Positions 18,907 through 50,631 of a stretch of 64,000 bases of DNA are shown here, in pieces. Every line of letters starts with the position of its first letter. Position 1 is the first letter of the stretch. Both the position numbers and the translations under genes were made by a program. The notes under the pieces are model-generated. The model had not been told where the DNA came from. It did not search any database and saw nothing but the letters and a program-made list of their open reading frames with translations. Source of the stretch: Patescibacteria group bacterium (GTDB taxonomy: Bacteria; Patescibacteriota; Patescibacteriia; UBA9570); NCBI GenBank assembly GCA_024277435.1, contig JAJRVJ010000028.1:14114-78113 (forward strand), in the 5' to 3' direction.

Positions 18907-18913
18907 TATTTTT

Positions 18914-27517: not shown

Positions 27518-27880
27518 TATTGGGGTGGAGCATCAGCTGTATATGAAGAGCCAAGTTATTATTGTCCAAATACTCCAGAATTTGGTTTATGGCCATTTGG
27601 TGGATTTGAAGATGGTACGGATACCGAATATACTCAACATGGTTGGCAACCAATTGGTGATACTTCTGTATTTGTAACACAATACGATTATAATTTTAAA
27701 ACTGTTCTTAATGAATTTTCAGGGCGTGATACCAGTGAATTCACTTGTGATGAAGATTGCCCTGAAATTGACGTAAACAATGTATTACAAGTTGAGCCAG
27801 TTGTTACTACAGGTGGTGATACAGGTGGCGTACAATATGATTTCTACGACACCTTTACGGATCCATCTACTGAATTAGCC

Positions 27881-32020: not shown

Positions 32021-34825
32021 ATGATGAAACGTATTCTTGCACAATTCAAGCCAAATTTTCTAGCGGTAATTGCTATTGGGTGTATTGTTGCATTCACTAC
32101 AGTAATGCCTACTTTAGGGGAGGCTGGTCTTCTAGAATTTTCTAAAGATACAGTATTATATCTTGTGTCAGCTATTGCGTACTTCTTCTTGATATACATC
32201 ATGGGTAAATTAGCTACCCTTGGAACAAAGTTAGTGGTTACCACAGCGTATTTTAAGAATTTTACAGATTTACCAGCTGTTATTGAAGGTTGGCAAGTGG
32301 TGCGAGATCTTTCCAATATGTTCTTTATAGTAATTCTTCTAGCTATAGCGTTTGGTACGTTATTTAGAATTGAAGCCTATTCTTGGAAAAAGCTCTTACC
32401 AAAAATGGTATTAGCCGCTGTACTCATTAATTACTCTCGTGCAATTGTAGGTGTAGTTGTGGATGCGTCTCAAATTATCATGCTTACATTTGCTGAGGCA
32501 GTAGCAGCAGCAGCCGACAAAGGAATTGCTAAAGCCTTTAACTTAGGTGATTTATTATCATTTGGTACCAGCGTGTTGCCGGATGGGTCAGCATCAAATA
32601 ACCCGGCGGTAGCTTCTCCCGAGCAGCGTTTATTAGGTATTGTAGCTGCCGGATTAATGTTATCGGTATTAGTAGCTGTACAATTTACCTACGCCGCTGT
32701 ATTAGCTGGCCGTTTAGCGATGATTTGGTTTTTAACAGTGCTGTCTCCGTTGGCATTCGTTATGATGGTATTACCATCTACCGAGAAGTATTATAAACAG
32801 TGGATGGAAATGTTAGGGCGGTATGTAACGGTAGGTCCAATGATATTATTTTATCTCTGGTTATCCATGTTCATTGGCTCCAAGGCTGGAGAAAATTTAG
32901 CAACACAAGCTACAAGTAAAAACCTTGGTGAATTTGTAGATCTTAGCAATGGAGGGTCTGCCGCTGATGCTGTACGTCCAGATATTGTGGTGTCATTTCT
33001 TATTTCCACCATGATGTTATTAGCTGGTTTGAAAATGGCAAATGATAACGCATCCGAAATGGGTACTATTACTAGTAAGGCATCTTCGGTTGGCCAGTTT
33101 GTGGCTAAAGCTCCGCTAAAGTATGGTGCCAAACCAGTAGCAGGGTATGCCGCAGATAAGGTATACGAGGGTACTGGTTTAGATATGAACTTGGTGCGGG
33201 TGGCTAACCGTTGGAAGGAAGGCTTAGATGAGTCACGTAAGAAACGTGAACTACGTGGCCGTACTAAGGCTGGTGAGGCGTATCGAAATGGTAGCTTGTT
33301 ACATGGTGCGTTGGGAGCTGGTGATGAAGTTGTAGAAAAAGGCTTAACTGTAGATCAATTTCGTGGTGGTATTCAAGGGAATTTGGGAATTACAGCTGCT
33401 TTAAATGCAATTAGTGGAGATGCAAAGATTGGAGATAGAATCTCTATGAGTAAGCAGGGGCGTTATAATAGAGCCAGAGAGCGTGAGCAAAATCTACGGG
33501 ACGCTCATATAGCAGCTAGTGGAAAATTAGCATCTGATAAAGCGGATTTGGAAAAGAAGCATATGACGGTGCGTGATTTTGAGGCTGAAAAAGCTCGTCG
33601 TGAAAATGGAGTAACGCGGGCGGATGATCAGGCTGCAGCGTTTGCTGCTGGTGGAGGATCCATTAAATTAAATATGGAAAAGGCGGATGATAGAGCGTTA
33701 CTTGAAGCGCGCAAGAGTCACTTAGAATTATTACCAACCAGTCCAGCTATTCAGGCTGAGTTAGGGCGCCTTGATAAGGCAATGGGTACCTCAGGAGAGT
33801 TTACGCTTACCGATGCAGATGTGCAGTTAAGCGGAGCTGATGGAGCATTAGATTTATTGAAGAAGGAAAGAGAAAGTCATCGTGATCGTTGGAATGCAGA
33901 TAGAGGTACTATCACAGACGGTGATCGTATACACACTGGCTCTGATCTGGAATCATTTATTAGCGGTAAGCTATCTGGCCAGCAAGATGATGTTAATAAA
34001 TTAAAATCATCACTAGATGCCGCTACTAATGCCCGTCGCGATCTGGCGCCAGCCCTAACCATGAATACTGAATTGCAGCAACGTTCCGTTATTGGTGAGG
34101 CTAAGAAAAAGATTGTTACTAACGATTCCTCAGAATTATCCTCCAACTTTTTAAATGCCATGCTGCAAGGCAGCTCTCGCGGCCCGGAGGCTTTAGCGCT
34201 CCTAGAGCGATTAGCAGAAACTGGTAACTATAATGATGCACTTGGTGCTATGCGAGATTTTTACTCTTCCCAGGGAGATGACGCTAAGGCTAGTACTTTT
34301 TCCTACGGGTATCAAGGTATTCAAGCTTTATATAAAGAATTACAAGCTCGCACTGGCATGAATGATCAAGCTATTTTGAGTTCTATCCATTATGCTGGGC
34401 AGAAAGCTAAGGATTCTAACCACACCCCACTAACCGAAATTACTGAAGTGGTTGATGGAAGAATTCAGATGCGTCCACAGGAATTGGCAGAAGCTATTGC
34501 TATTGGTGAGGAGAATAAGAAAGATGCTATGTCTGTATCTAAATCAACTCGCCTACGGATACTTGATGGTGATTTTCATAAAGGTGAGATGGGGTATTTA
34601 GATAATATGGCAGCCAACATTATGGATCAAACAGATACCCGTGGGCGCATTCGTATGACAAGAAATCTTCTTGAGGAGCTAATAAAAGGCGATACAAAAA
34701 CCCTCATTGATGGCATGACGCGCTGGCAGCATTTTGCAAAAATGACCATTGATAAACATGGCAAAGAGGGGCGTGCAAAAATGAACGAGTTATTAGATCG
34801 TATGAATTATAGTGAACGAATTTAA
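32021..34825 (+). CDS. VirB6/TrbL-like polytopic membrane protein with a long coiled-coil C-terminal domain (T4SS inner-membrane component candidate)
   Basis: Six to seven transmembrane helices in the first about 330 aa, then a hydrophilic coiled-coil region of about 550 aa. Its position before PrgI-like and VirB4 genes mirrors Gram-positive T4SS order (PrgH-PrgI-PrgJ). Confidence 0.45.
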   Translation: MMKRILAQFKPNFLAVIAIGCIVAFTTVMPTLGEAGLLEFSKDTVLYLVSAIAYFFLIYIMGKLATLGTKLVVTTAYFKNFTDLPAVIEGWQVVRDLSNMFFIVILLAIAFGTLFRIEAYSWKKLLPKMVLAAVLINYSRAIVGVVVDASQIIMLTFAEAVAAAADKGIAKAFNLGDLLSFGTSVLPDGSASNNPAVASPEQRLLGIVAAGLMLSVLVAVQFTYAAVLAGRLAMIWFLTVLSPLAFVMMVLPSTEKYYKQWMEMLGRYVTVGPMILFYLWLSMFIGSKAGENLATQATSKNLGEFVDLSNGGSAADAVRPDIVVSFLISTMMLLAGLKMANDNASEMGTITSKASSVGQFVAKAPLKYGAKPVAGYAADKVYEGTGLDMNLVRVANRWKEGLDESRKKRELRGRTKAGEAYRNGSLLHGALGAGDEVVEKGLTVDQFRGGIQGNLGITAALNAISGDAKIGDRISMSKQGRYNRAREREQNLRDAHIAASGKLASDKADLEKKHMTVRDFEAEKARRENGVTRADDQAAAFAAGGGSIKLNMEKADDRALLEARKSHLELLPTSPAIQAELGRLDKAMGTSGEFTLTDADVQLSGADGALDLLKKERESHRDRWNADRGTITDGDRIHTGSDLESFISGKLSGQQDDVNKLKSSLDAATNARRDLAPALTMNTELQQRSVIGEAKKKIVTNDSSELSSNFLNAMLQGSSRGPEALALLERLAETGNYNDALGAMRDFYSSQGDDAKASTFSYGYQGIQALYKELQARTGMNDQAILSSIHYAGQKAKDSNHTPLTEITEVVDGRIQMRPQELAEAIAIGEENKKDAMSVSKSTRLRILDGDFHKGEMGYLDNMAANIMDQTDTRGRIRMTRNLLEELIKGDTKTLIDGMTRWQHFAKMTIDKHGKEGRAKMNELLDRMNYSERI

Positions 34826-34833
34826 TAGTATAT

Positions 34834-36666
34834 ATGGTGGAGTTAACAACAATAATTAAAGCAGAATTCGACTTATCAGACAGTAAGCAGTTTGATGAGC
34901 ATATTGGGTTTCTTAAGGAAAATGTAAGCTGGGAGCGAGCGTATGAAGCGTTGCGTGTAATTCCTATTTATGAACAATGGCTAGAAAAGCACCCTTCTTT
35001 TATTACTGGGCATCCCGAAAAAACTGAAATTATTCGTACATTACTTGTAGATAATCGTTGGATTGCCTTGCGTATGATAAGCCATGATGAGGTGTTGGAA
35101 TTATACAAGCAACACATTCTTAATGTGTTCACCATAGAAGATCGCTATGATGAAATGGATGGCTATAGTGATCTACCAAAAATGATCTTACACGAGTATC
35201 TTCGAGCTCACTTGTTAACAATCCGTATACTCGATGACCGTGATGAATTTAAACACGCTATTATTAACGCACTTACTCGTAATCAAGAACCTATTACATC
35301 GGCTCCATATTTTGCTGATATTAAAGAAACTACACCTACATTAGCCAATTGGTTTGCTGAATATATAGAGTTCATGGTGCCAGATGTTAGATACTCACAG
35401 TTTCAGCAATCAAAATTTTTCAAAACAAATGAAAACATATTGCGCCTTTCTAATAAAGAATTACATCGTCTCCGGTTGTTATTTGACCTCTACGAACGTT
35501 TACGAATTTCTTCTTGGCGCCCTACTGGTATGGAAGAAAGTTTATTCTATGATGGAGAGCAAGGAGTTGGTGTGGTACAATATGAAGAGATCATTCCTTA
35601 TGCAAAGGAAGATCAAGAACGAATTAAAAAAGCTATGCAACATATTCAACAACAACAAGCTAAAAAAGATGCGGCTAACCCTCCTGCAGCTCGTCCACCT
35701 GTAGATCAGGTGCGGGCGCGTCCTACGGTGCATCCAGATATTGAAGGGTTAGATATGGATTCTACAGAAGGTCCGGATCATTTTAGTAAGCAAGATGATG
35801 AAGAAATATTCCGTCATGAAGAAAAAAGTAATATTCTTACAAAAGTAGATCCACAATACGAAAATCGGGCTCATGCACTAAAGGATCATCTGCAAGTTTC
35901 ATTTCAAACTCCCGAGGTAGAAAAGAAGTTTACCGCATTACTAGTGTCTGTATTGCGTGGCTTACGTGATGTTATGGAGTTACGCAGTTATCTAGAAGAG
36001 TTGAAATATAGTAAAAAGCAAATTGAACATATTGTAGACGGTGTAAAAGCAGAGATCAAGGGTGATATTGTTCCAGCTAAGCAAAGGGAATCCGCTACAG
36101 CGGAACGTAAAACAGAACGTAGTAGGCCAACATTCAGTCAATTACAACAACAGGTAAAAACTGTACAGAAGCGTTATAGTGCAAGCCAGGATGATGTAGA
36201 TGATGCAGCGGTAGAATCAACAACAGTTAAACCACAACCAGTTGCAGCAGTGAATGAACGTAAACATTTATTACCTAAGTTGCGCCGGCCACGTCGTCAG
36301 AAAAAGCAATTAATTGACGATGTAAAGATCCAAGAATCTATGGTAATGAGCCCAATTGATGAATTGCGGGCAATGGATTTAATTGAATATCGTCGTTTAT
36401 CACCAAATCCAGCTGAGGCAGCTATGAAGTTGCGAGATAAAATATTTTTATTAGGAGATGATTCAGTTGCGAAGCAAGCAGAGGGCGTTCAGGCATTTAA
36501 AACATCATCACTCAATAAGCAATTTCTTGATATCGGCAACCGATCAATGAGTGAGGGCCGTAGTGTAACTGATGTTATTGTAGAAATGCAAAAAAGCGGA
36601 ATTCCTGTATTGAGTGTGGAAGAATTTAATGCAGTAGCCGACCTTAATAAGCAATTGCGCTTTTAA
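34834..36666 (+). CDS. Hypothetical 610-aa soluble protein within the T4SS-like cluster
   Basis: Long ORF, no recognisable motifs, with charged low-complexity central region. Confidence 0.6.
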   Translation: MVELTTIIKAEFDLSDSKQFDEHIGFLKENVSWERAYEALRVIPIYEQWLEKHPSFITGHPEKTEIIRTLLVDNRWIALRMISHDEVLELYKQHILNVFTIEDRYDEMDGYSDLPKMILHEYLRAHLLTIRILDDRDEFKHAIINALTRNQEPITSAPYFADIKETTPTLANWFAEYIEFMVPDVRYSQFQQSKFFKTNENILRLSNKELHRLRLLFDLYERLRISSWRPTGMEESLFYDGEQGVGVVQYEEIIPYAKEDQERIKKAMQHIQQQQAKKDAANPPAARPPVDQVRARPTVHPDIEGLDMDSTEGPDHFSKQDDEEIFRHEEKSNILTKVDPQYENRAHALKDHLQVSFQTPEVEKKFTALLVSVLRGLRDVMELRSYLEELKYSKKQIEHIVDGVKAEIKGDIVPAKQRESATAERKTERSRPTFSQLQQQVKTVQKRYSASQDDVDDAAVESTTVKPQPVAAVNERKHLLPKLRRPRRQKKQLIDDVKIQESMVMSPIDELRAMDLIEYRRLSPNPAEAAMKLRDKIFLLGDDSVAKQAEGVQAFKTSSLNKQFLDIGNRSMSEGRSVTDVIVEMQKSGIPVLSVEEFNAVADLNKQLRF

Positions 36667-36677
36667 CTATATAGCAC

Positions 36678-37241
36678 ATGCAGCAATTTGTTGTACCACA
36701 ATTTATTGAGGTGGAGTCCAAGGTAATTGGTCCAATTTCGGTACGGCAATTTATCATTCTTCTTGTTACCGCGGGTATCATTTATATATGGTTTGAATTA
36801 TTTAGCTTAGTTGTTTTTGCTATACTAGGAGTGGTGACGTTAGCAATTGGTGGTGTATTTGCTTTTGCAAAGGTAAATAGTCAGTCATTCCATGTATTTC
36901 TATTGAGTTTTATTCAAACAATGAAGCGACCAAAGCTTTCTGTTTGGCGAAGAGAGCATCCGATAAAGGCAATTGAAAAGAAGGGTCGTAAAGATAAGAA
37001 GGATAAGAAGGACGATACAGAATTTACACCAAAGCCTGATGTATCGCAATCACATCTAGCAGAGCTGGCACTTATCATGGATACTGAAGGACAGTACTCT
37101 CCACAAGACATAGAGCAATTACGCAAGGAGCAGCACGCAGAGGTACCAGCTCCAGTGCAATTACCAAAGGATGACCTTGTAGATCTTAATGCTGAGCAAC
37201 CAAGCCCTCAAAATTCTAATGAACGAGAACAGCAACAATAA
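36678..37241 (+). CDS. PrgI/VirB3-like small two-transmembrane protein
   Basis: VPQFIEVESKVIGPISVRQFIILLVTAGIIYIWF followed by a second transmembrane segment matches the PrgI (PF12666)/VirB3-like pattern. It sits immediately upstream of VirB4. Confidence 0.5.
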   Translation: MQQFVVPQFIEVESKVIGPISVRQFIILLVTAGIIYIWFELFSLVVFAILGVVTLAIGGVFAFAKVNSQSFHVFLLSFIQTMKRPKLSVWRREHPIKAIEKKGRKDKKDKKDDTEFTPKPDVSQSHLAELALIMDTEGQYSPQDIEQLRKEQHAEVPAPVQLPKDDLVDLNAEQPSPQNSNEREQQQ

Positions 37242-37258
37242 TTGTTGTATAACTGTAT

Positions 37259-38011
37259 ATGGCTAAAAAGAAAAAGCAAACAACTTCAAAAAAGGCAAAG
37301 GCCGAGGAGCTTAAAGCTCGGCAAGCTGGTGGCGGAATGAAAAAGAAGCGTAAGTCTGCACCAAATTCTCAGAGTAATATGCCTATTGCTGAGGTTAAGC
37401 AAGATACGGTTCTTTTAAAGGATGGTACGTTGCGATCTGTATTAGAAGTATCTTCAATTAACTTTGCGTTGAAGAGTGCAGATGAACAACAAGCTATTAT
37501 TCAAGGATATATTCAGTTTTTGAATTCTATTGATTTTGAACTACAAATTGTCATTCAGTCCCGCAAGCTTGATATTTCAAAATATCTTGAACAGCTCGAT
37601 AAATTAGCTAAGGAGCAAACGAACGAACTATTAAAAGTGCAAACTGTTGAATATCGTCAATATATCGATGAGTTAGTAACCTTATCGGAGATTATGGAGA
37701 AACGTTTTTTTGTAGTAGTTCCGTATTCACCATTTTCTAAAAAACGTAAAAGTTTTTTTACTCGAGCGCAAGAAGTATTATTTCCCAGCCGTGTAATTAA
37801 ATTGGCCGATAATAAATTTGCAAAATATAAGAAAGAACTCGATCGTAGAGTGGGAATTACCGCTGGGGGATTATCTTCAATTGGTTTAAAAATTGATATG
37901 TTAAGCACACAACGTTTAATTGAGTTATACTATCAAATATACAACCCAACTCGTGGAACTAGTAAAAAATTACCAGACCTAAATGATTTGCGAGTTGAGC
38001 AAGCAGGATAA
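37259..38011 (+). CDS. VirB4/TrbE/PrgJ N-terminal domain (CagE_TrbE_VirB-like)
   Basis: VLLKDGTLRSVLEVSSINFALKSADEQQAIIQGYIQFLNSIDFELQIVIQSR matches the VirB4 N-terminal motif pattern. It ends at TAA 38009-38011, in the same frame as the next ORF. Confidence 0.55.
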   Translation: MAKKKKQTTSKKAKAEELKARQAGGGMKKKRKSAPNSQSNMPIAEVKQDTVLLKDGTLRSVLEVSSINFALKSADEQQAIIQGYIQFLNSIDFELQIVIQSRKLDISKYLEQLDKLAKEQTNELLKVQTVEYRQYIDELVTLSEIMEKRFFVVVPYSPFSKKRKSFFTRAQEVLFPSRVIKLADNKFAKYKKELDRRVGITAGGLSSIGLKIDMLSTQRLIELYYQIYNPTRGTSKKLPDLNDLRVEQAG

Positions 38012-38014
38012 TAT

Positions 38015-39913
38015 ATGATTGATTTAAAGCGTGCAGCCGCGCAACAAGGCCAAACTACTAACGTAAGCCCTTTGAAGCCATCTTCTAAGGAGGACATAGA
38101 GGACCGCAAAAAAAAGCGTGCCAAAGAACAGCATGAATCACGTGAGTTATTAGAAGCTGCAAAATCATATGAAGAAGGGGTGCGCTCCATATTAGATTTG
38201 GTTGCGCCAGCAGCATTTAGAGCTAAACCACGGTTAGTGGATGTGGGTGGTAGATTTGTTTCAACGATGTTTGTGGTTACATATCCTCGTTATATTGCTG
38301 TGGGATGGTTTGCTCCAATTGTTACGTTAAACATCTCATTGGATGTGGCAATGTATTTTTATCCGGTAAAGCCTGCGATTATTCTGAAGCAACTAAAGAA
38401 AAAAGTAGGTTCACTAGAAGCCGAGCTTATTTCAGATGCAGAAAAAGGAGCGCCACGCGATCCGGTAAAAGAAACGGCTTTAAAAGATATTGAGGGATTG
38501 CGTGATAGCTTAACTCAGGGAACCGAAAAGTTTTTTCAATTCGCTTTATACATCAGCGCATACGCCGACACAGAAAAAGAACTTGAGGACCTTATGGAAA
38601 AATTAGATTCGGAATTTGGCTCTAAATTAGTTATTGCTAAACGCGTATTCTATCAGGCTGAACAAGGCTTTAATTCAACAATGCCTTTAGCGAATGATGA
38701 GTTGCAGGTGTATTTCAACATGAATTCATCACCCTGTGCTTCTTCATTCCCATTTATTTCAGCTGAGCTTACTAGTGATAATGGTATTTTATATGGTGTG
38801 AATCGGCATAATAATAGCCTGATTTTATTTGATCGCTTTGCTCTTCAGAATGCTAACTCTGTAGTATTTGCTACATCTGGTGCTGGTAAGAGTTATACGG
38901 TGAAATTAGAAGTATTACGTAGTTTAATGATGGGTACCGATGTAATTATTATTGATCCAGAAAATGAGTATAAGTTTTTATCTGATGCTGTAGGTGGAAC
39001 ATTTGTGAATGTATCGTTAAATTCCGAAGCAAAGATTAATCCGTTTGATTTACCTCGTCCGGTTGGCGGGGCTGATCGACCGGCCGATATTATTCGTTCA
39101 GCAGTTATTACTATCAAAGGTTTACTGCGCATCATGCTTGGTAAAATTACTCCAGGGGAAGATTCAATTATCGATCGAGCGCTTATTGAAACGTATGCAA
39201 AAAAAGATATTACACCAGACGCCGATCTCACAACTATAGAGCCACCAATAATGAAAGACTTCCAAGAAATTTTAGAAGGCTTTGATGGCAGTCATGATTT
39301 AGTATTACGCTTAAAGAAATACACTGAAGGTACATTCGCAGGTATGTTTGAAAGCCCTACAAATATTGATATGACGAATCAGTTAGTAGTATTTTCCGTA
39401 CGTGATTTAGAAGATGAATTACGCCCGATTGGTGTGTATACGGTAGTAAATTATATTTGGAATGTTGTACGATCGCAATTAAAGCGCCGTATTCTTATTA
39501 TTGATGAAGCCTGGTGGTTAATGCAAAATGAGGATTCGGCCAAGTTTATTTTTGCGCTGGTTAAACGATGTCGTAAATATTATCTTGGTGTAACTACTAT
39601 CACTCAGGATGTGAACGATTTCTTACTCTCTCCATATGGTAGAGCAATTGTAACTAACTCTCAATTGCAAATTCTACTAAAACAGTCCTCAGCCGCTATT
39701 GATAACATTCAAAAAACATTCTTACTTACAGAAGGTGAAAAATTCTTACTGCTAGAGGGTAATGTGGGCGAGGGGATATTCTTTGCTGGCTCACGTCACG
39801 CGGCTATTAAAGTGGTAGCATCGTATACAGAAGATCAAATTGTTACGTCCGATCCAAAGCAATTATTAGAAATCGATGATGCGAAAAAAGAATTCGCAAA
39901 CCAAAATCAATAG
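38015..39913 (+). CDS. VirB4-family T4SS ATPase (C-terminal ATPase domain)
   Basis: Walker A FATSGAGKSYTV, Walker B ILIIDEAWWLM. Typical VirB4/TraE C-terminal organisation. Confidence 0.85.
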   Translation: MIDLKRAAAQQGQTTNVSPLKPSSKEDIEDRKKKRAKEQHESRELLEAAKSYEEGVRSILDLVAPAAFRAKPRLVDVGGRFVSTMFVVTYPRYIAVGWFAPIVTLNISLDVAMYFYPVKPAIILKQLKKKVGSLEAELISDAEKGAPRDPVKETALKDIEGLRDSLTQGTEKFFQFALYISAYADTEKELEDLMEKLDSEFGSKLVIAKRVFYQAEQGFNSTMPLANDELQVYFNMNSSPCASSFPFISAELTSDNGILYGVNRHNNSLILFDRFALQNANSVVFATSGAGKSYTVKLEVLRSLMMGTDVIIIDPENEYKFLSDAVGGTFVNVSLNSEAKINPFDLPRPVGGADRPADIIRSAVITIKGLLRIMLGKITPGEDSIIDRALIETYAKKDITPDADLTTIEPPIMKDFQEILEGFDGSHDLVLRLKKYTEGTFAGMFESPTNIDMTNQLVVFSVRDLEDELRPIGVYTVVNYIWNVVRSQLKRRILIIDEAWWLMQNEDSAKFIFALVKRCRKYYLGVTTITQDVNDFLLSPYGRAIVTNSQLQILLKQSSAAIDNIQKTFLLTEGEKFLLLEGNVGEGIFFAGSRHAAIKVVASYTEDQIVTSDPKQLLEIDDAKKEFANQNQ

Positions 39914-39947
39914 TTATATTAATCGCCCAGTTTAATTACATAGAATT

Positions 39948-40568
39948 ATGAATAGAAAATTACTTATCGCTATCGTTGGATCTGCCGCAACACTACTACT
40001 TATTGTAATTGGTGTTGCCATTTGGGCTACAATGAGCAATGTTGCAACTAAAGATGGTGAACAAACTAATGAAGTGAATGCTAATCAAGGCGTTACCACT
40101 AAGAATACCAATAGTACATCTACCTCTTCTGGTAATGAGGGAGTAGATATAAATAGTTCTGGAAGTACTTTGTCTGGTAATAGTTTGGCTGAAGCGAGTA
40201 CGGATGAAGAATCGATTATTCGATTAGCAAAGAGTTTTACTCAGCGCTTTGGTTCTTTTTCTAATGATACGGATTATGAGAATATAGAGTTGTCCAGGCC
40301 ATTCATGACGGAAGACATGATAAATCGCACAAATGCACTCATCATTCCACAGGATGATAATGCTGAATTTTATAGTATTTCTACGCAATCTATTGATGTA
40401 GATATTGTTGATTTTGGAGAAGGGGCAACTGGTGCTACCATAGAAGTAGGCACTCGCCGAACGGAGCGTAAGGGCTTAGATAATCCGGTGAAATTTTCTC
40501 AAACAGCTCGGCTGGAATTAAAGAAAATTAGTAATCAATGGAAGGTTGATAAATTTACTTGGAAATAA
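39948..40568 (+). CDS. Membrane-anchored 206-aa protein (possible VirB8/PrgL-like component)
   Basis: N-terminal transmembrane segment plus about 120-aa extracytoplasmic domain of the size expected for an NTF2-like VirB8 fold. Position immediately after VirB4. No sequence motif was recognised. Confidence 0.45.
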   Translation: MNRKLLIAIVGSAATLLLIVIGVAIWATMSNVATKDGEQTNEVNANQGVTTKNTNSTSTSSGNEGVDINSSGSTLSGNSLAEASTDEESIIRLAKSFTQRFGSFSNDTDYENIELSRPFMTEDMINRTNALIIPQDDNAEFYSISTQSIDVDIVDFGEGATGATIEVGTRRTERKGLDNPVKFSQTARLELKKISNQWKVDKFTWK

Positions 40569-40585
40569 ATAATCGAAAGTCTCTT

Positions 40586-41623
40586 ATGCGGCCATCACTA
40601 AAACGCATTATATTTACAGTTACTTCAGGCCTCGGTTTTGTTGTGCCGTCGTTAGTGTTGGCAGCAAAGCGTATTGATGAGATTAGTTACACGCTAGAGC
40701 AACCATTTGGTAATGTTTCAACTGTAACAAGTTTTGGCCAGTATTTGCAGCTGGCATACGAATACACCGCTGGACTCATTGGCATTATTGCTGTAGTAGT
40801 AATTATGGCTGGCGGCTTAATGTGGGTTTCGGCTGCTGGTAACGAGCAAAAAATTAGTACTGCTAAAGAAATTATCATTGGTGCCGTTACCGCTGTTGTG
40901 ATTATTGTACTTTCGTATGCAATATTAGTATTTATTAATCCAAGATTGGTTCAGAATACATTTTCTTTAGAGCGTATTAGTTTCGTGCCATCAGATGTAG
41001 ATATTAACACACTCCCACTTTGTACATCTAAAAATTTTACTGGACAAACCTGTGTAGGTGAGGATTCTCGTGACATTGAGTGTGATTTATTGCAGTGCGG
41101 AGAGATAGGTACGCTACCAAGCGTGGGAGAGTGTCGTGGTGCTGGTAATGAATGTGGATCTGGCAGCTACAAGTGCTACCCTGATTCAGATATTCCGCGC
41201 GAAGATATGCAGTGTCAATTAGATGCCTGTGGTACTTGGATTAGTAGTTGCTATCAAAAATATATGAAAGGCGCTGCCGATGAGACTAATGAGACAGCGT
41301 ATAATAACTGCATATGTCAGTACTACGAAAGCGAAGCTATGGATTATTTTGGCGGTGTCAACGCATACGATGCAACTCGCGCAGGAATTTTTGAAGATAT
41401 GTGTAATGAAACAATAGAAAATATTGATTGGAGCACATATATTGGTAATGATAGCGCTATAGCTGCTAAGTATACAGGCGCTACTACTGGACAAGCTTCT
41501 GTATTAGGATTGAATTGTGGCTTAGGATGTAATTTTGAAAAAGGTGAAGAAACCTATAGAGATACGGATGAGTTTGGCGTAACAATAACAACAACGCTTG
41601 ACACTGTTACTTGCGTACCATAA
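40586..41623 (+). CDS. Secreted fusion protein: VirB2/TrbC-like pilin module plus Cys-rich C-terminal domain (paralog A)
   Basis: Signal peptide, then helix-loop-helix hydrophobic hairpin AGLIGIIAVVVIMAGGLMWVSAAGNEQKISTAKEIIIGAVTAVVIIVLSYAILVFINP (VirB2-like topology), then about 200 aa with about 17 Cys. Confidence 0.5.
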   Translation: MRPSLKRIIFTVTSGLGFVVPSLVLAAKRIDEISYTLEQPFGNVSTVTSFGQYLQLAYEYTAGLIGIIAVVVIMAGGLMWVSAAGNEQKISTAKEIIIGAVTAVVIIVLSYAILVFINPRLVQNTFSLERISFVPSDVDINTLPLCTSKNFTGQTCVGEDSRDIECDLLQCGEIGTLPSVGECRGAGNECGSGSYKCYPDSDIPREDMQCQLDACGTWISSCYQKYMKGAADETNETAYNNCICQYYESEAMDYFGGVNAYDATRAGIFEDMCNETIENIDWSTYIGNDSAIAAKYTGATTGQASVLGLNCGLGCNFEKGEETYRDTDEFGVTITTTLDTVTCVP

Positions 41624-41687
41624 ATATTCCTTATCAATAAAACACGAATAACTTGTTTTATCGTAGGTATTATGGTATAATTATCCC

Positions 41688-42974
41688 ATGAATTGGTTGC
41701 GTGATTTTATAGAGCGAGTAACAAATTGGGCAGAAGATCTTAATGAGGGCCAGCGCCGTATTTTTTTGGCAGGCCTACTTTTAGTTGGAGCCGCTTTTAT
41801 GGGCTTCCTTATTTACTGGGTATTTTTCCGAGATTTTTTTGGAGAAGAACAAGTAAGTATCAATGGTGAATTAGTAAATGTAAGCCAATTACCAGATATT
41901 ATTCCGGTAACTGCTGATATTGATTTAGTTAATGTAAATGAAGCAGTTGGGTTGCCAGATATCGACGTTGTAGCTAAGGGCGGTAATACACTTTCACAGG
42001 TTATCCGCTATGGTGAATCAAAAAATGTGGTATTGAGTGGCGATGGAAAAACGCTGCAATACTATGATCCTGAAACTGGGAAATTTTATCGTATTGATGA
42101 AAATGGAAATGTTATTGAATTAAGCGATAAAGTATTTCAGGGTGTAGAGGAAGCTACTTGGTCTAACGATGGAGATAAAGCCGTTATTGAGTTAGAAGAT
42201 GGCTTTAACATTGTGTATGATTTTGATATTGAAGAACAGTACACATTACACGAGGATATGGCAGATTTTGATTTTTCTCCAAACGATAATCAAATCAGTT
42301 TCAAATTTGAACCAGGTAATCCCGATGATAACTTCTTAGGTATTTCTAGCTATGATGGATCTGGAGCAGTCGCAATTGAGCATCTTGGTAATAATGGTGA
42401 TCAAGTGAATCCGCAGTGGTCTCCATCAGGGCAATCGATTGGTACATTTGAAGAATATGTTGATGGCATCAATAAATCGGTTCTACCACTTGGATTTAAG
42501 GGTGAAAATTTCAAAGATTTTATAGTTGAGGGAAGAGGCTTTGATTATGAATGGTCACCAAGTGGTAGACAAATGCTATACAGTACGTATACCCCAGCAA
42601 ATAACTATAATCCTACCATTCATATAGTAAATGCGTATGGTGATGAGATTGGCTCTGGTAACCATTCATTAAATTTAAATACATCAGTTGATAAATGCAC
42701 CTTTACCGCCAGCGGAAATTCAGTATACTGTTCTGTTCCAACTGAACAGCCAATTGGTTTAGGAATTAATCCTGATAATGCTAATGATATTCCACATGAT
42801 ATTTATAAAGTGGATATAGAATCTGGATTCATAGAAAAAATAGCTACACCAGTAGATCAACAATTAGGGAGTAGTCTTAAAGGGGCAACATCTATAATAG
42901 TAAGTAAAGATGAGAGTATTCTCTATTATACCGAGGCTGATACTGGAAATATTCGTCGAATCCTTTTAAAATAA
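41688..42974 (+). CDS. Membrane-anchored TolB-like beta-propeller (PD40-repeat) protein
   Basis: N-terminal transmembrane segment; repeated WSNDGDKAV, FSPNDNQISF, WSPSGQSIG and WSPSGRQMLY motifs typical of PD40/TolB-like blades. Confidence 0.5.
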   Translation: MNWLRDFIERVTNWAEDLNEGQRRIFLAGLLLVGAAFMGFLIYWVFFRDFFGEEQVSINGELVNVSQLPDIIPVTADIDLVNVNEAVGLPDIDVVAKGGNTLSQVIRYGESKNVVLSGDGKTLQYYDPETGKFYRIDENGNVIELSDKVFQGVEEATWSNDGDKAVIELEDGFNIVYDFDIEEQYTLHEDMADFDFSPNDNQISFKFEPGNPDDNFLGISSYDGSGAVAIEHLGNNGDQVNPQWSPSGQSIGTFEEYVDGINKSVLPLGFKGENFKDFIVEGRGFDYEWSPSGRQMLYSTYTPANNYNPTIHIVNAYGDEIGSGNHSLNLNTSVDKCTFTASGNSVYCSVPTEQPIGLGINPDNANDIPHDIYKVDIESGFIEKIATPVDQQLGSSLKGATSIIVSKDESILYYTEADTGNIRRILLK

Positions 42975-42979
42975 TTTAT

Positions 42980-43747
42980 ATGAGTAAATCAAATTCACAG
43001 TACAAATATTACGCAATTATTACCCTGGCAATCTTTGGATTACTTTTTTTGATTAGTACGTGGTTTTTTATTCGAGTTGCTATTTTAGGATCCGCTGATA
43101 CTATTCTCATTAATAATGAATCATTAACCAGTGAGGACGTAATAAAAATCCAAATGCAGAGTCCGGAATTTAAAGACCCGCTTATTACTGTTGTGCCAGA
43201 GGATCAACAGAGTATCAGCAGTAAATCTAAGGTATTTATTTCAAATATCGATCCATCACTTGGCTCAGATGAATCCAGGGCCTTTGTTATCATTTATGGT
43301 AATTTTGCAGATCCACAAGTAAGTGATTATATACTTTGGGCAACTAACATTGTTGAGGATTATGATGGCAATGTAACTGTTGTATGGAAAGATTATGTTT
43401 CACCAGATGATGAGCGGGCTACAGCTATGGCAGTGCGAGCACATTGTGCAGCTGAGCAAAATCGTTTTTGGCAATTTGCTGATGCATTGCAGAATCGTGA
43501 GTCAGATGATGATGCTACATTGCTATCACTTACTCTAGCGCTTGGTATGGATGAGTTAACGTTTAATGAGTGTTTGGATTCCGGAGGATATGAAGCGATA
43601 GTTGAGCAGAACTACTTTGCTGGGAATAATTATAGCGTATCAAATGGTCATACGCTATTTGTGAATGACCGGCAATACAATGAATTGATTTCTGAAGAAG
43701 AACTAAGAACAAGTATTGACGAAGTTCTCGTTGAATTTAGCGAATAA
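42980..43747 (+). CDS. DsbA-like thioredoxin-fold protein (Thioredoxin_4-like) with a degenerate CxxC site, membrane-anchored
   Basis: C-terminal AHCAAEQNRFWQFADAL matches the DsbA/BdbD signature A..C..EQ.KFW.FHD.LF. The position where CxxC is expected reads FADPQ. Confidence 0.45.
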   Translation: MSKSNSQYKYYAIITLAIFGLLFLISTWFFIRVAILGSADTILINNESLTSEDVIKIQMQSPEFKDPLITVVPEDQQSISSKSKVFISNIDPSLGSDESRAFVIIYGNFADPQVSDYILWATNIVEDYDGNVTVVWKDYVSPDDERATAMAVRAHCAAEQNRFWQFADALQNRESDDDATLLSLTLALGMDELTFNECLDSGGYEAIVEQNYFAGNNYSVSNGHTLFVNDRQYNELISEEELRTSIDEVLVEFSE

Positions 43748-43757
43748 TAAAAGAAGC

Positions 43758-45056
43758 ATGCGCTTAGTAAAATTATCCCTATACTGCATTATACTTGCAT
43801 CAGCGGTATTTGGATTTGCACAAAGTGTACAGGCTGAACCTGCTCCAGACTATGTGCCCGGACCAGATCAACTATATACACTAGAGCAAAAATTTGGGAA
43901 TATAAGCCAAGTTGCTGATATTGGAGAATACATTCAGTTAGTATATTCGTATGCCGTCGGTATCGTTGGAATTATAGCGGTAGTATTAATTATGGGTGGA
44001 GGTATTATGTGGGTTTCCGCTGCTGGTAATGAGCAAAAAATTAGTACTGCCAAAGAAGTTATTGTTTCTGCGGTTACAGCGGTGATAATAATGGTCCTTT
44101 CATATGGTATATTAGTATTTATTAACCCACAGCTCACTAAAGTGCAAATAAGTGTGCCAGTTATTCCGGTGCTTGATAGTTGCCCAGAAGTTCCATTACA
44201 ATCATTTCCATCTATCGATGGCCTTGAATCTAATGGTTCCCAAGCTTGCCCTGGTATGGTGGCTGAAATTACTTCGATTGTTTCTAGTATGAGAGCTACT
44301 GGTGGTTTATGTGAAGATTGTACACTGGCCATTGGTAACGCTTGGCGGTCAAGTGAATCTCAAGCTACATTGTATCAGTGTTTTACGCAAGCAGTAGAAG
44401 AAGGGTATCGTACAAGTGGAGGAATACCTATTAAAGATGGTTGCCCCAGCGGCTGTAGTGGTTGTAATAAAGCTCGCGAGGTGAGTGAAACAACTTGCGC
44501 TTCTGGCCATTTACGAGGAGCGGCAATGGACGCCTACCTTATGGTAGGTGCAACGAGTGATAAAAATACCGCGGCAGGAGTGACTGCACAAGGCCCTGAC
44601 GGAAGTGCATATATTGCAAATAGCCGATGGTATTTAAATCAAAAATATAATTTAGGCAATGGAGTAGAGAGTACCTTAAAAGATCCATTAAAGAATAATC
44701 AAGATTTATTGGCAACTATAGCAACGAGCACCGGAAAGTTCACACCGTTCACACCAACAGCATCGGGGGGTGAATGGTGGCATTTTGATTTTTCTGCAGC
44801 ACAATGTGATTCATTTGACGCTCCCTGTACTATAAATACTACTACAGGATTTGCTGATAATGGATATTGCCGTTTAACTACTCCTGGCAGTGTGACATAT
44901 ACATTAGCGAGCTGCACTGCAGGGGAGCCTACATGTCCTACAGGCACAACCGGATCTATTTATACTACCTTAGATGACACTAGTTGCGGATTATGGAATG
45001 GAACGCATTTGGAGATGGATAATGTAATTCTTCCACCTAATTGTGTATCTGATTAA
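43758..45056 (+). CDS. Secreted fusion protein: VirB2/TrbC-like pilin module plus Cys-rich C-terminal domain (paralog B)
   Basis: Signal peptide MRLVKLSLYCIILASAVFGFAQSVQA. The core VGIVGIIAVVLIMGGGIMWVSAAGNEQKISTAKEVIVSAVTAVIIMVLSYGILVFINP is near-identical to paralog A. The C-terminal Cys-rich domain is divergent. Confidence 0.6.
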   Translation: MRLVKLSLYCIILASAVFGFAQSVQAEPAPDYVPGPDQLYTLEQKFGNISQVADIGEYIQLVYSYAVGIVGIIAVVLIMGGGIMWVSAAGNEQKISTAKEVIVSAVTAVIIMVLSYGILVFINPQLTKVQISVPVIPVLDSCPEVPLQSFPSIDGLESNGSQACPGMVAEITSIVSSMRATGGLCEDCTLAIGNAWRSSESQATLYQCFTQAVEEGYRTSGGIPIKDGCPSGCSGCNKAREVSETTCASGHLRGAAMDAYLMVGATSDKNTAAGVTAQGPDGSAYIANSRWYLNQKYNLGNGVESTLKDPLKNNQDLLATIATSTGKFTPFTPTASGGEWWHFDFSAAQCDSFDAPCTINTTTGFADNGYCRLTTPGSVTYTLASCTAGEPTCPTGTTGSIYTTLDDTSCGLWNGTHLEMDNVILPPNCVSD

Positions 45057-49080: not shown

Positions 49081-49620
49081 TTATAGTTCAAATCCAATAA
49101 TATAGTCATAGTCAGCAACGGCCTGCCCATTAATAGCCGGTCCAGCGCATGCATGCTTTACCAATTGGTCGTTAAATTTATCGTCTTCAGTTTTATAGAA
49201 TGCTAGTAGAGGCCCAATAAAATCATCTCCAGCATCTGCATTACAACGGTCAATCGGTCGAGTAGGAGAGTAATAATAGAAGTAATTAGTACCATCATTA
49301 CTTGGATCAGCTGGTACAGGATTCATATATGGATCCAAAACTGAATCAATAGCGCTGCCAGTGCCAATTACTTCACCGATTGCAGTAATTCCATCATCAG
49401 CATTATTTGGAAATCGGCCATTTTCCGAATAAAATGCGCCTAACGCAACTGTAATGGCCTGCATATCAGATATGCGAGTTGCGTCACGGGCTTGTGTTCT
49501 GGCCGTGCTAATACGGATAATAATGATAGTTGCCAGAAGGCCAATAATGCCAATTACAAGAAGTAGCTCGATAATAGTAAAGCCTTCTTGACTATTATGC
49601 TGGTTATTTATGATATGCAT
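49081..49620 (-). CDS. Type IV pilin-like protein (prepilin-type N-terminal cleavage/methylation domain)
   Basis: GFTIIELLLVIGIIGLLATIII matches the class III signal peptide / N-methylation motif (G-F-T-x-x-E). Confidence 0.75.
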   Translation of the reverse strand: MHIINNQHNSQEGFTIIELLLVIGIIGLLATIIIIRISTARTQARDATRISDMQAITVALGAFYSENGRFPNNADDGITAIGEVIGTGSAIDSVLDPYMNPVPADPSNDGTNYFYYYSPTRPIDRCNADAGDDFIGPLLAFYKTEDDKFNDQLVKHACAGPAINGQAVADYDYIIGFEL

Positions 49621-49656
49621 AATTAGGTGTTTTAATTTTTTATTTTAACTCTAATG

Positions 49657-50467: not shown

Positions 50468-50540
50468 CCCGTGCACTATATATGACGGAACTTCTTACTT
50501 AATGAGTAGGTAAGTAGTTGTTAGGTAGCAGAATACATCC

Positions 50541-50627: not shown

Positions 50628-50631
50628 CATA

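Follow-up and report, generated by a model that had tools for sequence, protein, structure and literature searches.

A relaxase-free chromosomal type IV secretion cluster with pilin-module fusions in an ABY1-class Patescibacteria genome

Introduction

Does a type IV secretion system (T4SS)-like gene cluster in a Patescibacteria genome belong to a conjugative element, or does it encode an apparatus with another use? The question is raised by a stretch of 64,000 nucleotides of contig JAJRVJ010000028.1 (hereafter the window), in which a preliminary description had recognised such a cluster, had read it as a non-conjugative apparatus at the cell surface, and had considered its architecture undescribed. 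The last of these claims is refuted by the literature. Chromosomal, relaxase-less T4SSs derived from MPF_FATA systems and carrying TrsD, PrgI, VirB6 and PF18895 pilins are known in Patescibacteria (PMC10633639, PMC12102498, review PMC12857230), and for the class ABY1 a recG/comF neighbourhood and VirB8 homologues are on record in a survey of 3035 genomes (Quinonero-Coronel et al. 2025, PMC12102498). The T4SS of Southlakia epibionticum ML1 (SEML1_0006-0019) is essential and has neither relaxase nor coupling protein (Wang et al. 2023, PMC10633639), and reviews of these systems concur. The cluster analyzed here is a well-preserved example, from a Kerfeldbacteria/ABY1-class genome, of this system described in 2023-2025.

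Organization of the cluster and its translocon core

The region 32021-45056 is a single-strand (+) gene cluster in which every ORF previously described is present at its coordinates, with spacings of 3-34 nt between ORFs. The order runs from an extended VirB6-like protein through a 610-aa protein (unk610), PrgI/VirB3, TrsD, VirB4 and a VirB8-like protein to a pilin fusion, a PD40 propeller, a DsbA-like protein and another pilin fusion. The cluster lies between ksgA and recG (RecG, 45059-47155) and is bordered on the chromosome by housekeeping genes; its GC content is that of the flanks, and all core T4SS ORFs are intact. At the end of ksgA, a perfect sigma-70 consensus (TTGACA-18-TATAAT with extended TG, 12/12; 18878..18907, +) stands immediately before an ORF for a 287-aa acidic protein with an N-terminal hydrophobic segment (18914..19777, +), which precedes the giant gene discussed below and had no match in a Pfam scan. 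From this consensus match only, we infer that the element may act as the operon promoter, with the 287-aa ORF as the first gene past it.

The extended VirB6/TrbL-like protein (32021..34825, +) consists of a polytopic domain (approximately aa 1-340, 32021-33040) with eight hydrophobic segments and a hydrophilic C-terminal extension of approximately 590 aa (K+R 12%), whose charge pattern is as in cytoplasmic proteins and which had no match in the PDB. "Extended VirB6" is a category already in the literature. Its assignment as a probable VirB6 homologue rests on orthologues: a direct Pfam scan of the window copy returned no match, whereas among the aligned N-terminal domains of the window copy and 51 orthologues, 10 of 52 matched PF04610 (TrbL/VirB6; best 4.4e-6). 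Thirteen alignment columns are invariant, and this N-terminal domain is conserved among orthologues ranging in full length from 820 to 1570 aa. Between VirB6 and PrgI, in a conserved position, lies unk610 (34834..36666, +), a soluble, Cys-free protein of 610 aa in which a helical N-domain (aa 10-280) is followed by a middle domain and then by a C-domain (aa 507-609) that is conserved. It is present in 71 loci, the C-domain ORF always being immediately 5' of PrgI; a Pfam scan of 51 family members gave zero matches, and no family or fold match was obtained for it.

The PrgI/VirB3-like protein (36678..37241, +; two TM segments, 17-35 and 44-62) matches Pfam PF12666 above the gathering score (E 8e-8). 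It is followed by a TrsD/TraD-type protein of 250 aa (37259..38011, +), a separate gene that the preliminary description had overlooked in an otherwise real set of ORFs. This protein amounts to the N-terminal part of VirB4 encoded on its own: it aligns with positions 96-233 of a Mycoplasma-ICE VirB4 (E 1.2e-13), also matches the TrsD family (6e-6) and positions 18-119 of CD1110, and occurs as its own ORF, of about 226 aa, in 77/77 loci. The VirB4 ATPase (38015..39913, +) is of the CD1110/MPF_FATA type (NCBIfam CD1110, 343.7 bits against a family cut-off of 325 bits, E 2e-102), carries a Walker A motif SGAGKS (38876-38893) and a Walker B motif IIDEAWW (39497-39517), and has a Firmicute VirB4, 4ag5, as its top PDB match (E 5e-47).

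The last core component is a bitopic VirB8/PrgL-like protein (39948..40568, +), in which a TM helix (aa 3-29) and a disordered linker precede an NTF2-like domain (aa 85-205). Sequence support for the family is weak, with PF04335 matched by 3 of 46 aligned members. In a Foldseek search against the PDB, however, its AlphaFold2 model (pLDDT 84) had the PrgL VirB8 domain 7aed as best match (3.3e-4), in line with the VirB8-like identity suspected earlier; CagV, VirB8 2cc3, TrwG, DotI, TraM, OrfG and TcpC were matched lower in the list. The assignment as a putative VirB8 is thus based on a common NTF2-like fold, as modelled, and on gene position. Taken together, profiles of the window proteins and of their orthologues and the predicted structure uphold the VirB6, VirB3, VirB4, VirB8-like, VirB2-like and propeller assignments; on direct profile comparison of the window copies, PrgI and VirB4 score above the cut-offs, but the VirB2 modules remain below theirs and VirB6 is matched through its orthologues.

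Pilin-module fusions and accessory proteins

Two genes encode a signal peptide followed by a VirB2-like two-TM module and further domains, and both begin at the ATG codons assumed previously (40586 and 43758). PF18895 matches the two window modules with E-values of 5e-5 and 2.6e-4, each below the gathering score, and matches 61 of the 61 pilin-module members scanned (59 from related loci and the two window copies; best 6.5e-12). Both fusions had been proposed to be Cys-rich. This is the case for pilin fusion 1 (40586..41623, +; module approximately 40730-40936), the extracytoplasmic C-terminal domain of which has a conserved cysteine pattern and neither a Pfam nor a PDB match; the protein aligns with a Firmicute "Mbov_0395 family pilin-like" protein with an hhalign probability of 96%. 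Pilin fusion 2 (43758..45056, +; module approximately 43914-44123), by contrast, carries an M15/LAS zinc peptidoglycan peptidase domain (approximately 44313-44795) besides extra Cys-rich segments. Its motifs AWRSSESQ, SGHLRGAAMD and EWWH retain the catalytic residues (R211, H265, D272, E353 and H356 are invariant), and while the window copy gives weak VanY/M15 Pfam matches, an orthologue in related locus L081 matches VanY, and the M15 group profile matches VanX 1r44 (1.6e-7), VanY, LysB4, Ply500 and LdcB. In other species this position is occupied by an M15 domain or an SLT lytic transglycosylase.

Among the 150 best-scoring members of the very large pilin-module family, most are 200-900 aa long and the module covers approximately 80-100 residues, so that anchoring of other domains looks usual in this family. 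The modules could be mere membrane anchors for wall-remodelling enzymes and Cys-rich surface proteins, and the cluster a device for envelope biogenesis or surface display in the service of the cell's own wall and surface layer, with neither pilus nor intercellular transfer. The fused peptidoglycan hydrolases, and DsbA-like and propeller partners typical of envelope assembly, speak for such a role. Nevertheless, we consider it improbable, as Sec-dependent membrane insertion needs no VirB4/VirB6/VirB3/VirB8 translocon, cryo-EM of a cultivated relative revealed, at its interface with the host, tubular structures that are possibly T4SS pili, and the pilin array and T4SS of S. epibionticum are specifically essential for epibiotic growth (PMC10633639).

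Upstream of VirB6 lies a gene of approximately 4075 codons for a giant secreted, Cys-rich, acidic exoprotein (19787..32011, +) with a signal peptide, a region resembling vWA and a C-terminal region that is conserved. It was present as previously reported, but one in-frame TAA (27515-27517) breaks it; its product contains 109 + 38 Cys and 20% D+E. The counterpart in one relative, at the same position, is a single 4044-aa product, and in related locus L003 the gene reads open across the TAA site. Homologues immediately 5' of VirB6 were found by tblastn in 27 related loci and by blastp on ORFs in 31. PF00092 (VWA) is matched by 4 of 21 aligned orthologues, and a MIDAS-like motif, DTSSS, occurs in the window copy (28145-28159). 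Between the two pilin fusions are a PD40/TolB-type beta-propeller with an N-terminal TM anchor (41688..42974, +; PD40, E 9e-4), in whose family 21 of approximately 40 members scanned match PD40 (best 3.8e-8) and other propeller families are matched too, and a membrane-anchored DsbA-like thioredoxin-fold protein (42980..43747, +; Thioredoxin_4, E 1e-14). The reported loss of CxxC in the latter is borne out, the site (43304-43321) reading FADPQV, with DPQV in place of CxxC. Of 33 related sequences, 26 keep the motif (among in-cluster copies, 25 of 32); besides the window protein, those of the nearest clade (L001, L002, L003, L005) and of three other species have lost it, a distribution suggesting that CxxC is ancestral. 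With a stop in the giant gene and a DsbA-like protein devoid of its active site, this genome may be impaired in some accessory functions.

Conservation and genomic context

In the synteny comparison with related genomes, all 29 loci for which data were complete (29/29) were collinear in the core order VirB6-unk610-PrgI-TrsD-VirB4-VirB8-like, with RecG downstream of the cluster in 36 of 43 loci and synteny extending over dozens of species. The nearest relatives of VirB4 (67-88% identity) are in Kerfeldbacteria, Buchananbacteria, Magasanikbacteria and Patescibacteria MAGs, whereas the best plasmid matches listed from PLSDB, all from Firmicutes or Actinobacteria, reach at most 36%. A mobility-gene scan of window ORFs of at least 100 aa, covering nearly all non-nested ones across the 64 kb, revealed no relaxase, no VirD4-type protein and no complete integrase-bounded element, as the preliminary description had held for the first two; the window yielded no element boundary, and no relaxase, T4CP or integrase adjoins the cluster.

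An ordinary ICE or its remnant, with relaxase, coupling protein and integrase beyond the window or decayed, is largely refuted by this context. VirB4 does belong to the conjugative CD1110 family, the data comprise 64 kb of the genome, so that a T4CP or relaxase may lie elsewhere (T4CP homologues distant from virB4 are common in Patescibacteria, PMC12102498), and a frameshifted tyrosine recombinase lies beside two tRNA-Ser genes approximately 5.6 kb 3' of the cluster. However, this recombinase is parted from the cluster by recG and pilin genes and faces housekeeping genes beyond the tRNAs; the core ORFs are intact at the GC content of their flanks; the collinear cluster keeps its recG housekeeping context across dozens of species; precomputed Pfam annotation of a related genome places neither a relaxase nor a T4CP in the 10 kb on either side of the unk610 orthologue; and relaxases are rare, being found in 103 of 3035 Patescibacteria genomes (PMC12102498). 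The location between ksgA and recG, the synteny over dozens of species and the plasmid VirB4 identities of at most 36% therefore sustain the earlier view that the apparatus is chromosomal and non-conjugative and that the cluster is not an ICE, and the best reading of the sequence data is that the chromosomal cluster has been vertically inherited.

Discussion

Gram-positive conjugation systems have the gene orders TrsC-TrsD-TrsE (pGO1/pSK41), TraC-TraD-TraE with TraG and TraM/TraH (pIP501) and PrgH-PrgI-PrgJ-PrgK-PrgL (pCF10). The VirB3-TrsD-VirB4 order is nearer to TrsC-TrsD-TrsE of pGO1/pIP501 than to PrgH-PrgI-PrgJ, to which it was likened previously. Shared with Gram-positive MPF_FATA systems are this order, a polytopic VirB6-like protein, a bitopic VirB8-like NTF2 protein (with PrgL the best structural match), a dedicated peptidoglycan hydrolase and zero outer-membrane components. 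In contrast to them, the cluster lacks a relaxase, a coupling protein and an oriT context, is on neither plasmid nor ICE, contains VirB2-like modules and a VirB6 longer by approximately 590 aa, and places an M15 or SLT hydrolase on a pilin module instead of using a PrgK/TraG-type SLT+CHAP protein. Pilin-containing clusters of the CD1110/Mbov_0395-0397 type, found in Firmicutes and Mycoplasma ICEs, offer another comparison. On a Pontibacillus sp. plasmid (NZ_CP062975.1, 351.8-361.4 kb) the order is similar: pilin-like, large protein, small VirB3-like, TrsD-like (29% identity to the window TrsD, E 4e-27), CD1110 VirB4 (34.5% identical) and peptidoglycan metalloendopeptidase. Its pilin-like protein (151 aa) stands alone, unlike those of the window, its hydrolase is encoded apart, as an M23 protein of 1050 aa, its large protein resembles the VirB6-like family weakly (hhalign probability 34%, a 35-column motif), and giant exoprotein, propeller and DsbA-like gene are absent.

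Patescibacteria T4SSs are derived from this Gram-positive MPF_FATA machinery. With other members of the Patescibacteria clade the cluster shares a chromosomal location, the absence of relaxase and T4CP near virB4, VirB6, PrgI/VirB3, TrsD, MPF_FATA-type VirB4 and PF18895 VirB2-like pilin genes and, with class ABY1, the proximity of recG/comF and detectable VirB8 homologues. It differs from the published clade systems in having two pilin-module genes fused to large extracytoplasmic domains rather than a six-pilin-gene array, and in fusing the wall hydrolase to a pilin module rather than encoding it separately 3' of virB4. The ABY1 cluster also keeps the giant vWA/Cys-rich exoprotein, PD40 propeller, DsbA-like protein and 610-aa protein as conserved parts, for which no description was found in the literature searched.

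The reading we favour, at a probability of roughly 70%, is non-conjugative, contact-dependent macromolecule transfer at the host-cell interface, with export of proteins and breaching of the envelope as its likeliest tasks. We infer its assembly, transport direction, substrates and role in host dependence, the last by analogy with S. epibionticum. VirB6-like, PrgI/VirB3, TrsD, VirB4 and VirB8-like proteins would form an ATP-driven translocon in a single membrane, where the 610-aa protein and the cytoplasmic extension of VirB6 may stand in for a coupling protein. The VirB2-like two-helix modules would sit in the membrane with their C-terminal domains outside, a topology suggested by the signal peptide, the lysine-rich inter-helix loop and the cysteine-rich acidic C-terminal domains. 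The M15/LAS fusion (SLT elsewhere) would act as a VirB1/PrgK-type cutter of the cell's own wall and possibly the host's, and the other fusion, pilin fusion 1, carries a Cys-rich domain; the DsbA-like protein and the propeller may be extracytoplasmic assembly or scaffold factors for disulfide-rich parts, and the giant exoprotein is a candidate adhesin or surface fibre.

Less probable, although better placed than the other alternatives, is import of DNA or RNA, as in Helicobacter ComB or archaeal Ced, feeding a nucleotide-auxotrophic cell with the help of neighbouring competence and recombination genes. Nucleotide acquisition through T4SSs has been suggested in a PNAS perspective, ComB sets a precedent for inward transport, and a 2026 preprint relates host-RNA feeding to VirB4 and PNPase. 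The window contains genes for ComM (10866-12401), a ComF-like protein (52897-53556), RecG, a type IV pilin (49081-49620) and PNPase (5997-8225), and comF, recG and radA co-localise with ABY1 T4SSs (PMC12102498), but the recG/comF co-localisation may merely be conserved chromosome order. Like ComB, a T4SS core in non-conjugative use, the cluster lacks relaxase and coupling protein; the analogy is functional only, since ComB is diderm, with VirB7, VirB9 and VirB10, and has no specific sequence affinity to the cluster, and the match of VirB4 to CedB is weak and partial. Moreover, no DNA-binding or ComEC-like component is present in the cluster, the essentiality of the S. epibionticum T4SS is independent of ComEC competence, and transport direction is not revealed by sequence. 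Ultrasmall Patescibacteria probably use such T4SSs to exploit host cells.

Probable translocon genes of the cluster

The region 32021-45056, singled out in the preliminary description, was confirmed to hold ten tightly packed ORFs on the forward strand, separated by gaps of 3-34 nt, and these extend an upstream gene run that starts past ksgA (18031-18906). The VirB4 ATPase (38015-39913, +) contains the Walker motifs cited earlier for it, matches the TraG P-loop model (E 4.7e-28), belongs to the NCBIfam CD1110 family of VirB4-like conjugal ATPases (343.7 bits against a cut-off of 325) and has a Firmicute VirB4 as its best solved relative (4ag5, E 5e-47). It is preceded by a separate TrsD gene (37259-38011, +), the one component missed by an earlier gene list whose cluster ORFs were otherwise borne out. 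TrsD matches the TrsD/TraD family (E 6e-6) and the N-terminal region of full-length FATA-type VirB4 (E 1.2e-13). Since TrsD covers positions 18-119 of CD1110 and VirB4 positions 185-729, the two together correspond to one ancestral full-length FATA VirB4. In the window they share a frame, with one stop between them; a single VirB4 gene cut by a stop codon was ruled out, because TrsD is separate from VirB4 in 77 of 77 related loci and the two overlap out of frame in the relative L081.

PrgI/VirB3 (36678-37241, +) was identified with PF12666 at an E-value of 8e-8, above the gathering score. The VirB6-like protein (32021-34825, +) presents eight hydrophobic segments within residues 5-335, followed by about 590 hydrophilic residues. 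A Pfam search of the window protein returned no match; at the family level, 10 of 52 aligned N-terminal domains match TrbL/VirB6 (PF04610, best E 4.4e-6), no other family recurs, and the window protein aligns with the family members, with 13 invariant columns in common. Total length ranges from 820 to 1570 aa among relatives, and lysine and arginine make up 12% of the whole window protein, as in the cytoplasmic proteins of this organism and unlike its acidic exoproteins. The protein fits the known category of extended VirB6, defined in a 2025 FEMS review by at least five hydrophobic helices and a large hydrophilic central or C-terminal domain. A profile search of the VirB6-like alignment against PDB sequences yielded nothing useful, and the C-terminal extension had no significant PDB match.

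The ORF 39948-40568 (+), for which a Pfam search of the window protein gave no match, was proposed earlier to encode a VirB8-like protein. A homologue search with the single sequence recovered only itself, and an alignment was used as query instead. The AlphaFold2 model, built from 65 homologues (pLDDT 84), comprises a transmembrane helix, a disordered linker and an alpha+beta domain, whose best PDB match in Foldseek is the VirB8 domain of the pCF10 protein PrgL (7aed, E 3.3e-4), with further matches to CagV, Agrobacterium VirB8, TrwG, DotI, TraM, OrfG and TcpC. Among the aligned family sequences, 3 of 46 matched PF04335 weakly (best 0.017), and a profile search of the alignment against PDB sequences gave nothing useful. 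With its predicted N-terminal transmembrane segment and NTF2-like domain, encoded in a T4SS cluster, the modelled protein resembles the VirB8/PrgL family; as the NTF2-like fold is widespread, the assignment is one of resemblance plus context, not proof.

Between the VirB6-like and PrgI genes lies the gene of a 610-aa protein (34834-36666, +; here termed unk610) that is soluble, lacks cysteine and is conserved in position, the ORF of its C-terminal domain being always directly upstream of PrgI in related loci. No Pfam match was obtained in the window copy or among 51 family members, and no informative fold match was returned.

Pilin modules fused to other domains

The PF18895 "T4SS pilin" module was detected in the ORFs 40559-41623 (E 5e-5; pilin fusion 1, from the ATG at 40586, after the VirB8-like gene) and 43716-45056 (E 2.6e-4; pilin fusion 2, from the ATG at 43758, after the DsbA-like gene), both below the gathering score. 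In a scan of 61 pilin-family ORFs, of which 59 came from related loci and two from the window, every one matched PF18895, with a best E-value of 6.5e-12. Wall enzymes recur in this set: an SLT domain in 7 of the 61 (6e-21), Peptidase_M15 and VanY domains in 7 and 6, respectively (1e-7), M15_4 in 2 (1e-16), and 3D, SLT_3 and M23 in a single ORF each. By motif mapping, the gene that follows the DsbA-like one encodes an M15 domain in some species, the window's among them, and SLT in others, while the gene after the VirB8-like gene usually bears a Cys-rich domain of uncharacterised type. When the pilin C-terminal domains were clustered by BLAST without composition correction, unrelated Cys-rich domains fell together, and this grouping was discarded. 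For the Cys-rich domain of pilin fusion 1, the PDB yielded no more than weak matches to the RNase A family (E 0.03), which were taken as cysteine-pattern noise.

The three motifs by which M15/LAS peptidases are recognised, xxR(S/T)xxxQ, SxHxxGxAxD and ExxH with zinc ligands H, D and H, are all found in pilin fusion 2 (AWRSSESQ, SGHLRGAAMD and EWWH), and R211, H265, D272, E353 and H356 are invariant in six orthologues. The profile of the M15 group matches VanX (1r44, 1.6e-7), VanY, LysB4, Ply500 and LdcB. Pilin fusion 2 (43758-45056) is a pilin module joined to an apparently active wall peptidase, with a predicted activity equivalent to that of VirB1/PrgK. The earlier proposal of VirB2-like modules fused to Cys-rich domains holds for the pilin module and fails for the partner domain of pilin fusion 2, which is an M15/LAS wall peptidase. 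The signal peptide, the lysine-rich loop between the helices and the cysteine content suggest a topology in which the fused domains lie outside the membrane.

An exhaustive HMMER search for the pilin module family yielded 14,649 representatives at 50% identity (E up to 1e-3); the best-scoring 150 are mostly 200-900 aa long, versus the roughly 100 aa typical of VirB2. Some members (P0096, P0097, P0111, P0127) carry three to six tandem pilin modules per polypeptide.

The giant exoprotein and other putative surface components

Directly ahead of the VirB6-like gene, ORFs 19787-27517 (2576 aa) and 27881-32011 (1376 aa) share a frame and form a giant gene (19787-32011) with a lone TAA at 27515-27517. 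Relatives carry it uninterrupted, one encoding a 4044-aa product at the same position and another (locus L003) being open through the TAA site, and the TAA may reflect an error in sequencing, pseudogenisation in the recent past or a true division of the gene. An alternative genetic code was ruled out for this codon, as nearly every cluster gene ends in TAA. The predicted exoprotein (about 4075 codons) carries a signal peptide, contains 147 cysteines and consists to about 20% of acidic residues. A VWA domain (PF00092) was found in 4 of 21 aligned giant-protein sequences, all four orthologues; the window protein shows a DTSSS, MIDAS-like motif and had no significant vWA match of its own, either in Pfam or in a PDB sequence search of the putative vWA region. 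Homologues of the giant gene lie directly upstream of VirB6 in 27 loci by tblastn and 31 by blastp.

An invariant DNWxWC motif occurs in the giant protein just ahead of the VirB6 gene, and its conserved C-terminal region (31600-32011) contains an "IDWGDG...H.Y" motif recalling PKD domains, a likeness for which Pfam gave no match. Two further large secreted proteins with signal peptides (748 and 876 aa) are encoded at 59075-61321 and 61312-63942; their genes show strong positive GC skew, as does the giant exoprotein gene, and one of the proteins has a weak DUF7305 match.

Within the cluster, the ORF 41688-42974 (+) encodes a propeller with an N-terminal anchor and a weak PD40 repeat match; 21 of about 40 scanned members of its family match PD40 (best 3.8e-8). 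The adjoining ORF 42980-43747 (+) belongs to the Thioredoxin_4/DsbA-like fold family (E 1e-14) and has DPQV in place of CxxC, which upholds the earlier report of a DsbA-like protein with a lost active-site motif. CxxC is also replaced in the nearest clade; of 33 related sequences, 26 retain it. Judging from its sequence, the window protein, though homologous, cannot act as a classical oxidoreductase; the retention of CxxC in most relatives indicates that the ancestral cluster encoded an active one, which fits the adjoining cysteine-rich exoproteins.

Conservation of the locus and absence of mobility genes

VirB4 relatives were sought in one genome per species and 244 were found. The best 80 of these are 67-88% identical to the window VirB4 and come from Kerfeldbacteria, Buchananbacteria, Magasanikbacteria, Veblenbacteria, Parcubacteria or plain Patescibacteria MAGs; a few bear evidently automatic labels, and those named by lineage are almost all Patescibacteria/Kerfeldbacteria. 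By these identity levels, VirB4 appears to group with Patescibacteria VirB4 proteins. These relatives and the housekeeping genes around the cluster place the window on the chromosome of a Patescibacteria (CPR) genome of GTDB class ABY1. The best plasmid matches listed in PLSDB, from Firmicutes and Actinobacteria, reach at most 36% identity.

Both tblastn and blastp recover the same conserved order: giant exoprotein, VirB6-like, unk610, PrgI, TrsD, VirB4, VirB8-like, pilin fusion, propeller, DsbA-like, pilin fusion and recG. Of the 43 loci extending 8 kb or more to either side, 29 have the complete six-gene core, collinear in all 29, and 36 have recG. Median identity among loci is 72% for VirB4, versus 27-52% for the other parts. 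The GC content of the cluster is the same as that of its flanks. The conserved order, recG context, distance from plasmid proteins and unchanged GC content together speak for vertical descent of the cluster and against its being a mobile element.

As claimed in the preliminary description, neither a relaxase (MOB families) nor a VirD4/TcpA-type coupling protein was detected among scanned window ORFs of at least 100 aa, and neither was found within 10 kb on either side of the cluster in one relative. The sole coupling-protein signal was a weak, sub-threshold TraD match on the VirB4 P-loop. The window contains no intact integrase. Its only recombinase, a Xer/phage-type tyrosine recombinase (50671-51520, -), is frameshifted into two ORFs (51011-51520 and 50671-50979), adjoins two tRNA-Ser and one tRNA-Arg (tRNAs at 49656-49729, 50377-50469 and 50541-50628), is parted from the cluster by recG and the tRNAs, and faces away; it is not placed to bound the T4SS cluster. 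An ICE, or the remnant of one, would show a bounding integrase and att sites and a patchy distribution; with the recombinase misplaced and the cluster collinear across species, such an origin is hardly credible. The chromosomal setting without a nearby relaxase and with recG and comF as neighbours is that by which ABY1 loci are recognised.

Comparison with described systems

Southlakia epibionticum has an essential T4SS that resembles Gram-positive conjugative systems, with pilin genes but neither a relaxase nor a coupling protein (Wang et al. 2023, PMC10633639). In a survey of 3035 genomes (Quinonero-Coronel et al. 2025, PMC12102498), the majority of VirB4 proteins fall into a Patescibacteria clade that is nested inside MPF_FATA; TrsD, PrgI/VirB3, VirB6 and VirB2-like (PF18895) genes accompany virB4, relaxases are rare, and the ABY1 loci lie near comF, recG and radA and contain most detectable VirB8 homologues (PMC12102498). 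The 2025 FEMS review gives the same picture. The present cluster shares with this clade a VirB4 of CD1110/MPF_FATA affinity, an adjacent TrsD, PrgI/VirB3, VirB6 and PF18895 pilin genes. It is hence an ABY1-class example of the already described Patescibacteria T4SS, not a new kind of system, and the suggestion of an undescribed architecture falls to these publications (PMC10633639, PMC12102498). The hydrolase-pilin fusion, giant exoprotein, propeller, DsbA-like protein and unk610 are lineage-specific details of a known system. A limited literature search found no account of hydrolase-pilin module fusion or M15/SLT interchange, of the conserved giant exoprotein or unk610 family, or of propeller/DsbA-like partners and clade-specific CxxC loss, and the supplement files of PMC12102498 that were searched do not mention Thioredoxin_4, PD40, VanY or SLT.

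A plasmid locus of Pontibacillus sp. (NZ_CP062975.1, 351.8-361.4 kb) shares the order of a pilin-like protein, a large protein, a small VirB3-like protein, TrsD (29% identity, E 4e-27), a CD1110 VirB4 and an endopeptidase. There, unlike in the window, the "Mbov_0395 family pilin-like" protein stands alone and the M23 endopeptidase is a separate gene. These T4SS-like genes adjoin flagellar genes on a non-mobilisable 898-kb Firmicute replicon, and no relaxase is annotated near them. Pilin-containing, possibly non-conjugative FATA-type T4SSs therefore occur outside Patescibacteria too.

Functional interpretation

We consider the cluster, with a probability of roughly 0.7, to be a non-conjugative T4SS for host interaction, an estimate that covers its identity and general mode; this functional conclusion, already drawn from the sequence, accords with current thinking in the literature. 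The VirB6-like protein, PrgI, TrsD, VirB4 and the VirB8-like protein would form the translocon, the pilin-anchored peptidase would cut the wall, and the Cys-rich parts, propeller, DsbA-like protein and giant adhesin-like protein would act outside the membrane. That all of this serves envelope display, with no transfer, seems improbable.

The surroundings bear on what the machine might carry. Upstream in the window are housekeeping genes for S15, PNPase (5997-8225), guanylate kinase, LspA, ComM (10866-12401), LeuRS and KsgA; downstream are RecG (45059-47155), a type IV pilin-like protein (49081-49620), tRNAs, a ComF-like phosphoribosyltransferase (52897-53556), ClpB, HtpX and LemA. The PNPase, ComM, RecG, type IV pilin-like and ComF-like genes all lie less than 40 kb from the T4SS. 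Such a competence and recombination neighbourhood has been noted for ABY1 (PMC12102498). These adjoining genes, together with recent proposals in the literature, lend support to the main rival, in which the same machine imports nucleic acids; we regard this as unlikely. At the 3' end of ksgA, 18878-18907 forms a perfect 12/12 sigma-70 consensus promoter with an extended -10 TG, directly preceding a 287-aa ORF and a same-strand gene run of about 26 kb; it is a candidate promoter of the entire T4SS operon.

A decidedly speculative mechanism can also be drawn. The ABY1 VirB2-like modules might polymerise into an "armed" conjugative-type pilus or stalk, whose subunits would bear an M15 peptidase or SLT transglycosylase and a Cys-rich domain on the outside, so that the filament would cut through the wall of the host cell; substrate gating, in place of a coupling protein, would fall to the fold orphan unk610 and the cytoplasmic extension of VirB6. 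If true, this would be a mechanistically new T4SS route to reach and tap another bacterium.

The earlier interpretation is partly supported, and the finding has some value, which lies in the accessory features. Few surface machines are as conserved in the huge, mostly uncultivated Patescibacteria radiation as the T4SS, which is essential in the one species tested, its need for epibiotic growth having been shown by Tn-seq for S. epibionticum only (PMC10633639). The window offers a clean, complete ABY1-class example with concrete testable parts: a pilin module bearing a wall-cutting enzyme, which is M15 in some species and SLT in others; the giant vWA exoprotein, conserved among relatives and a candidate for the missing adhesin; the DsbA-like partner, whose active site is lost in one clade; and unk610, a conserved cytoplasmic fold orphan at a position where one might look for a substrate receptor. 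Structural and genetic studies of how ultrasmall bacteria exploit their hosts could take these ABY1 accessory features as a guide.
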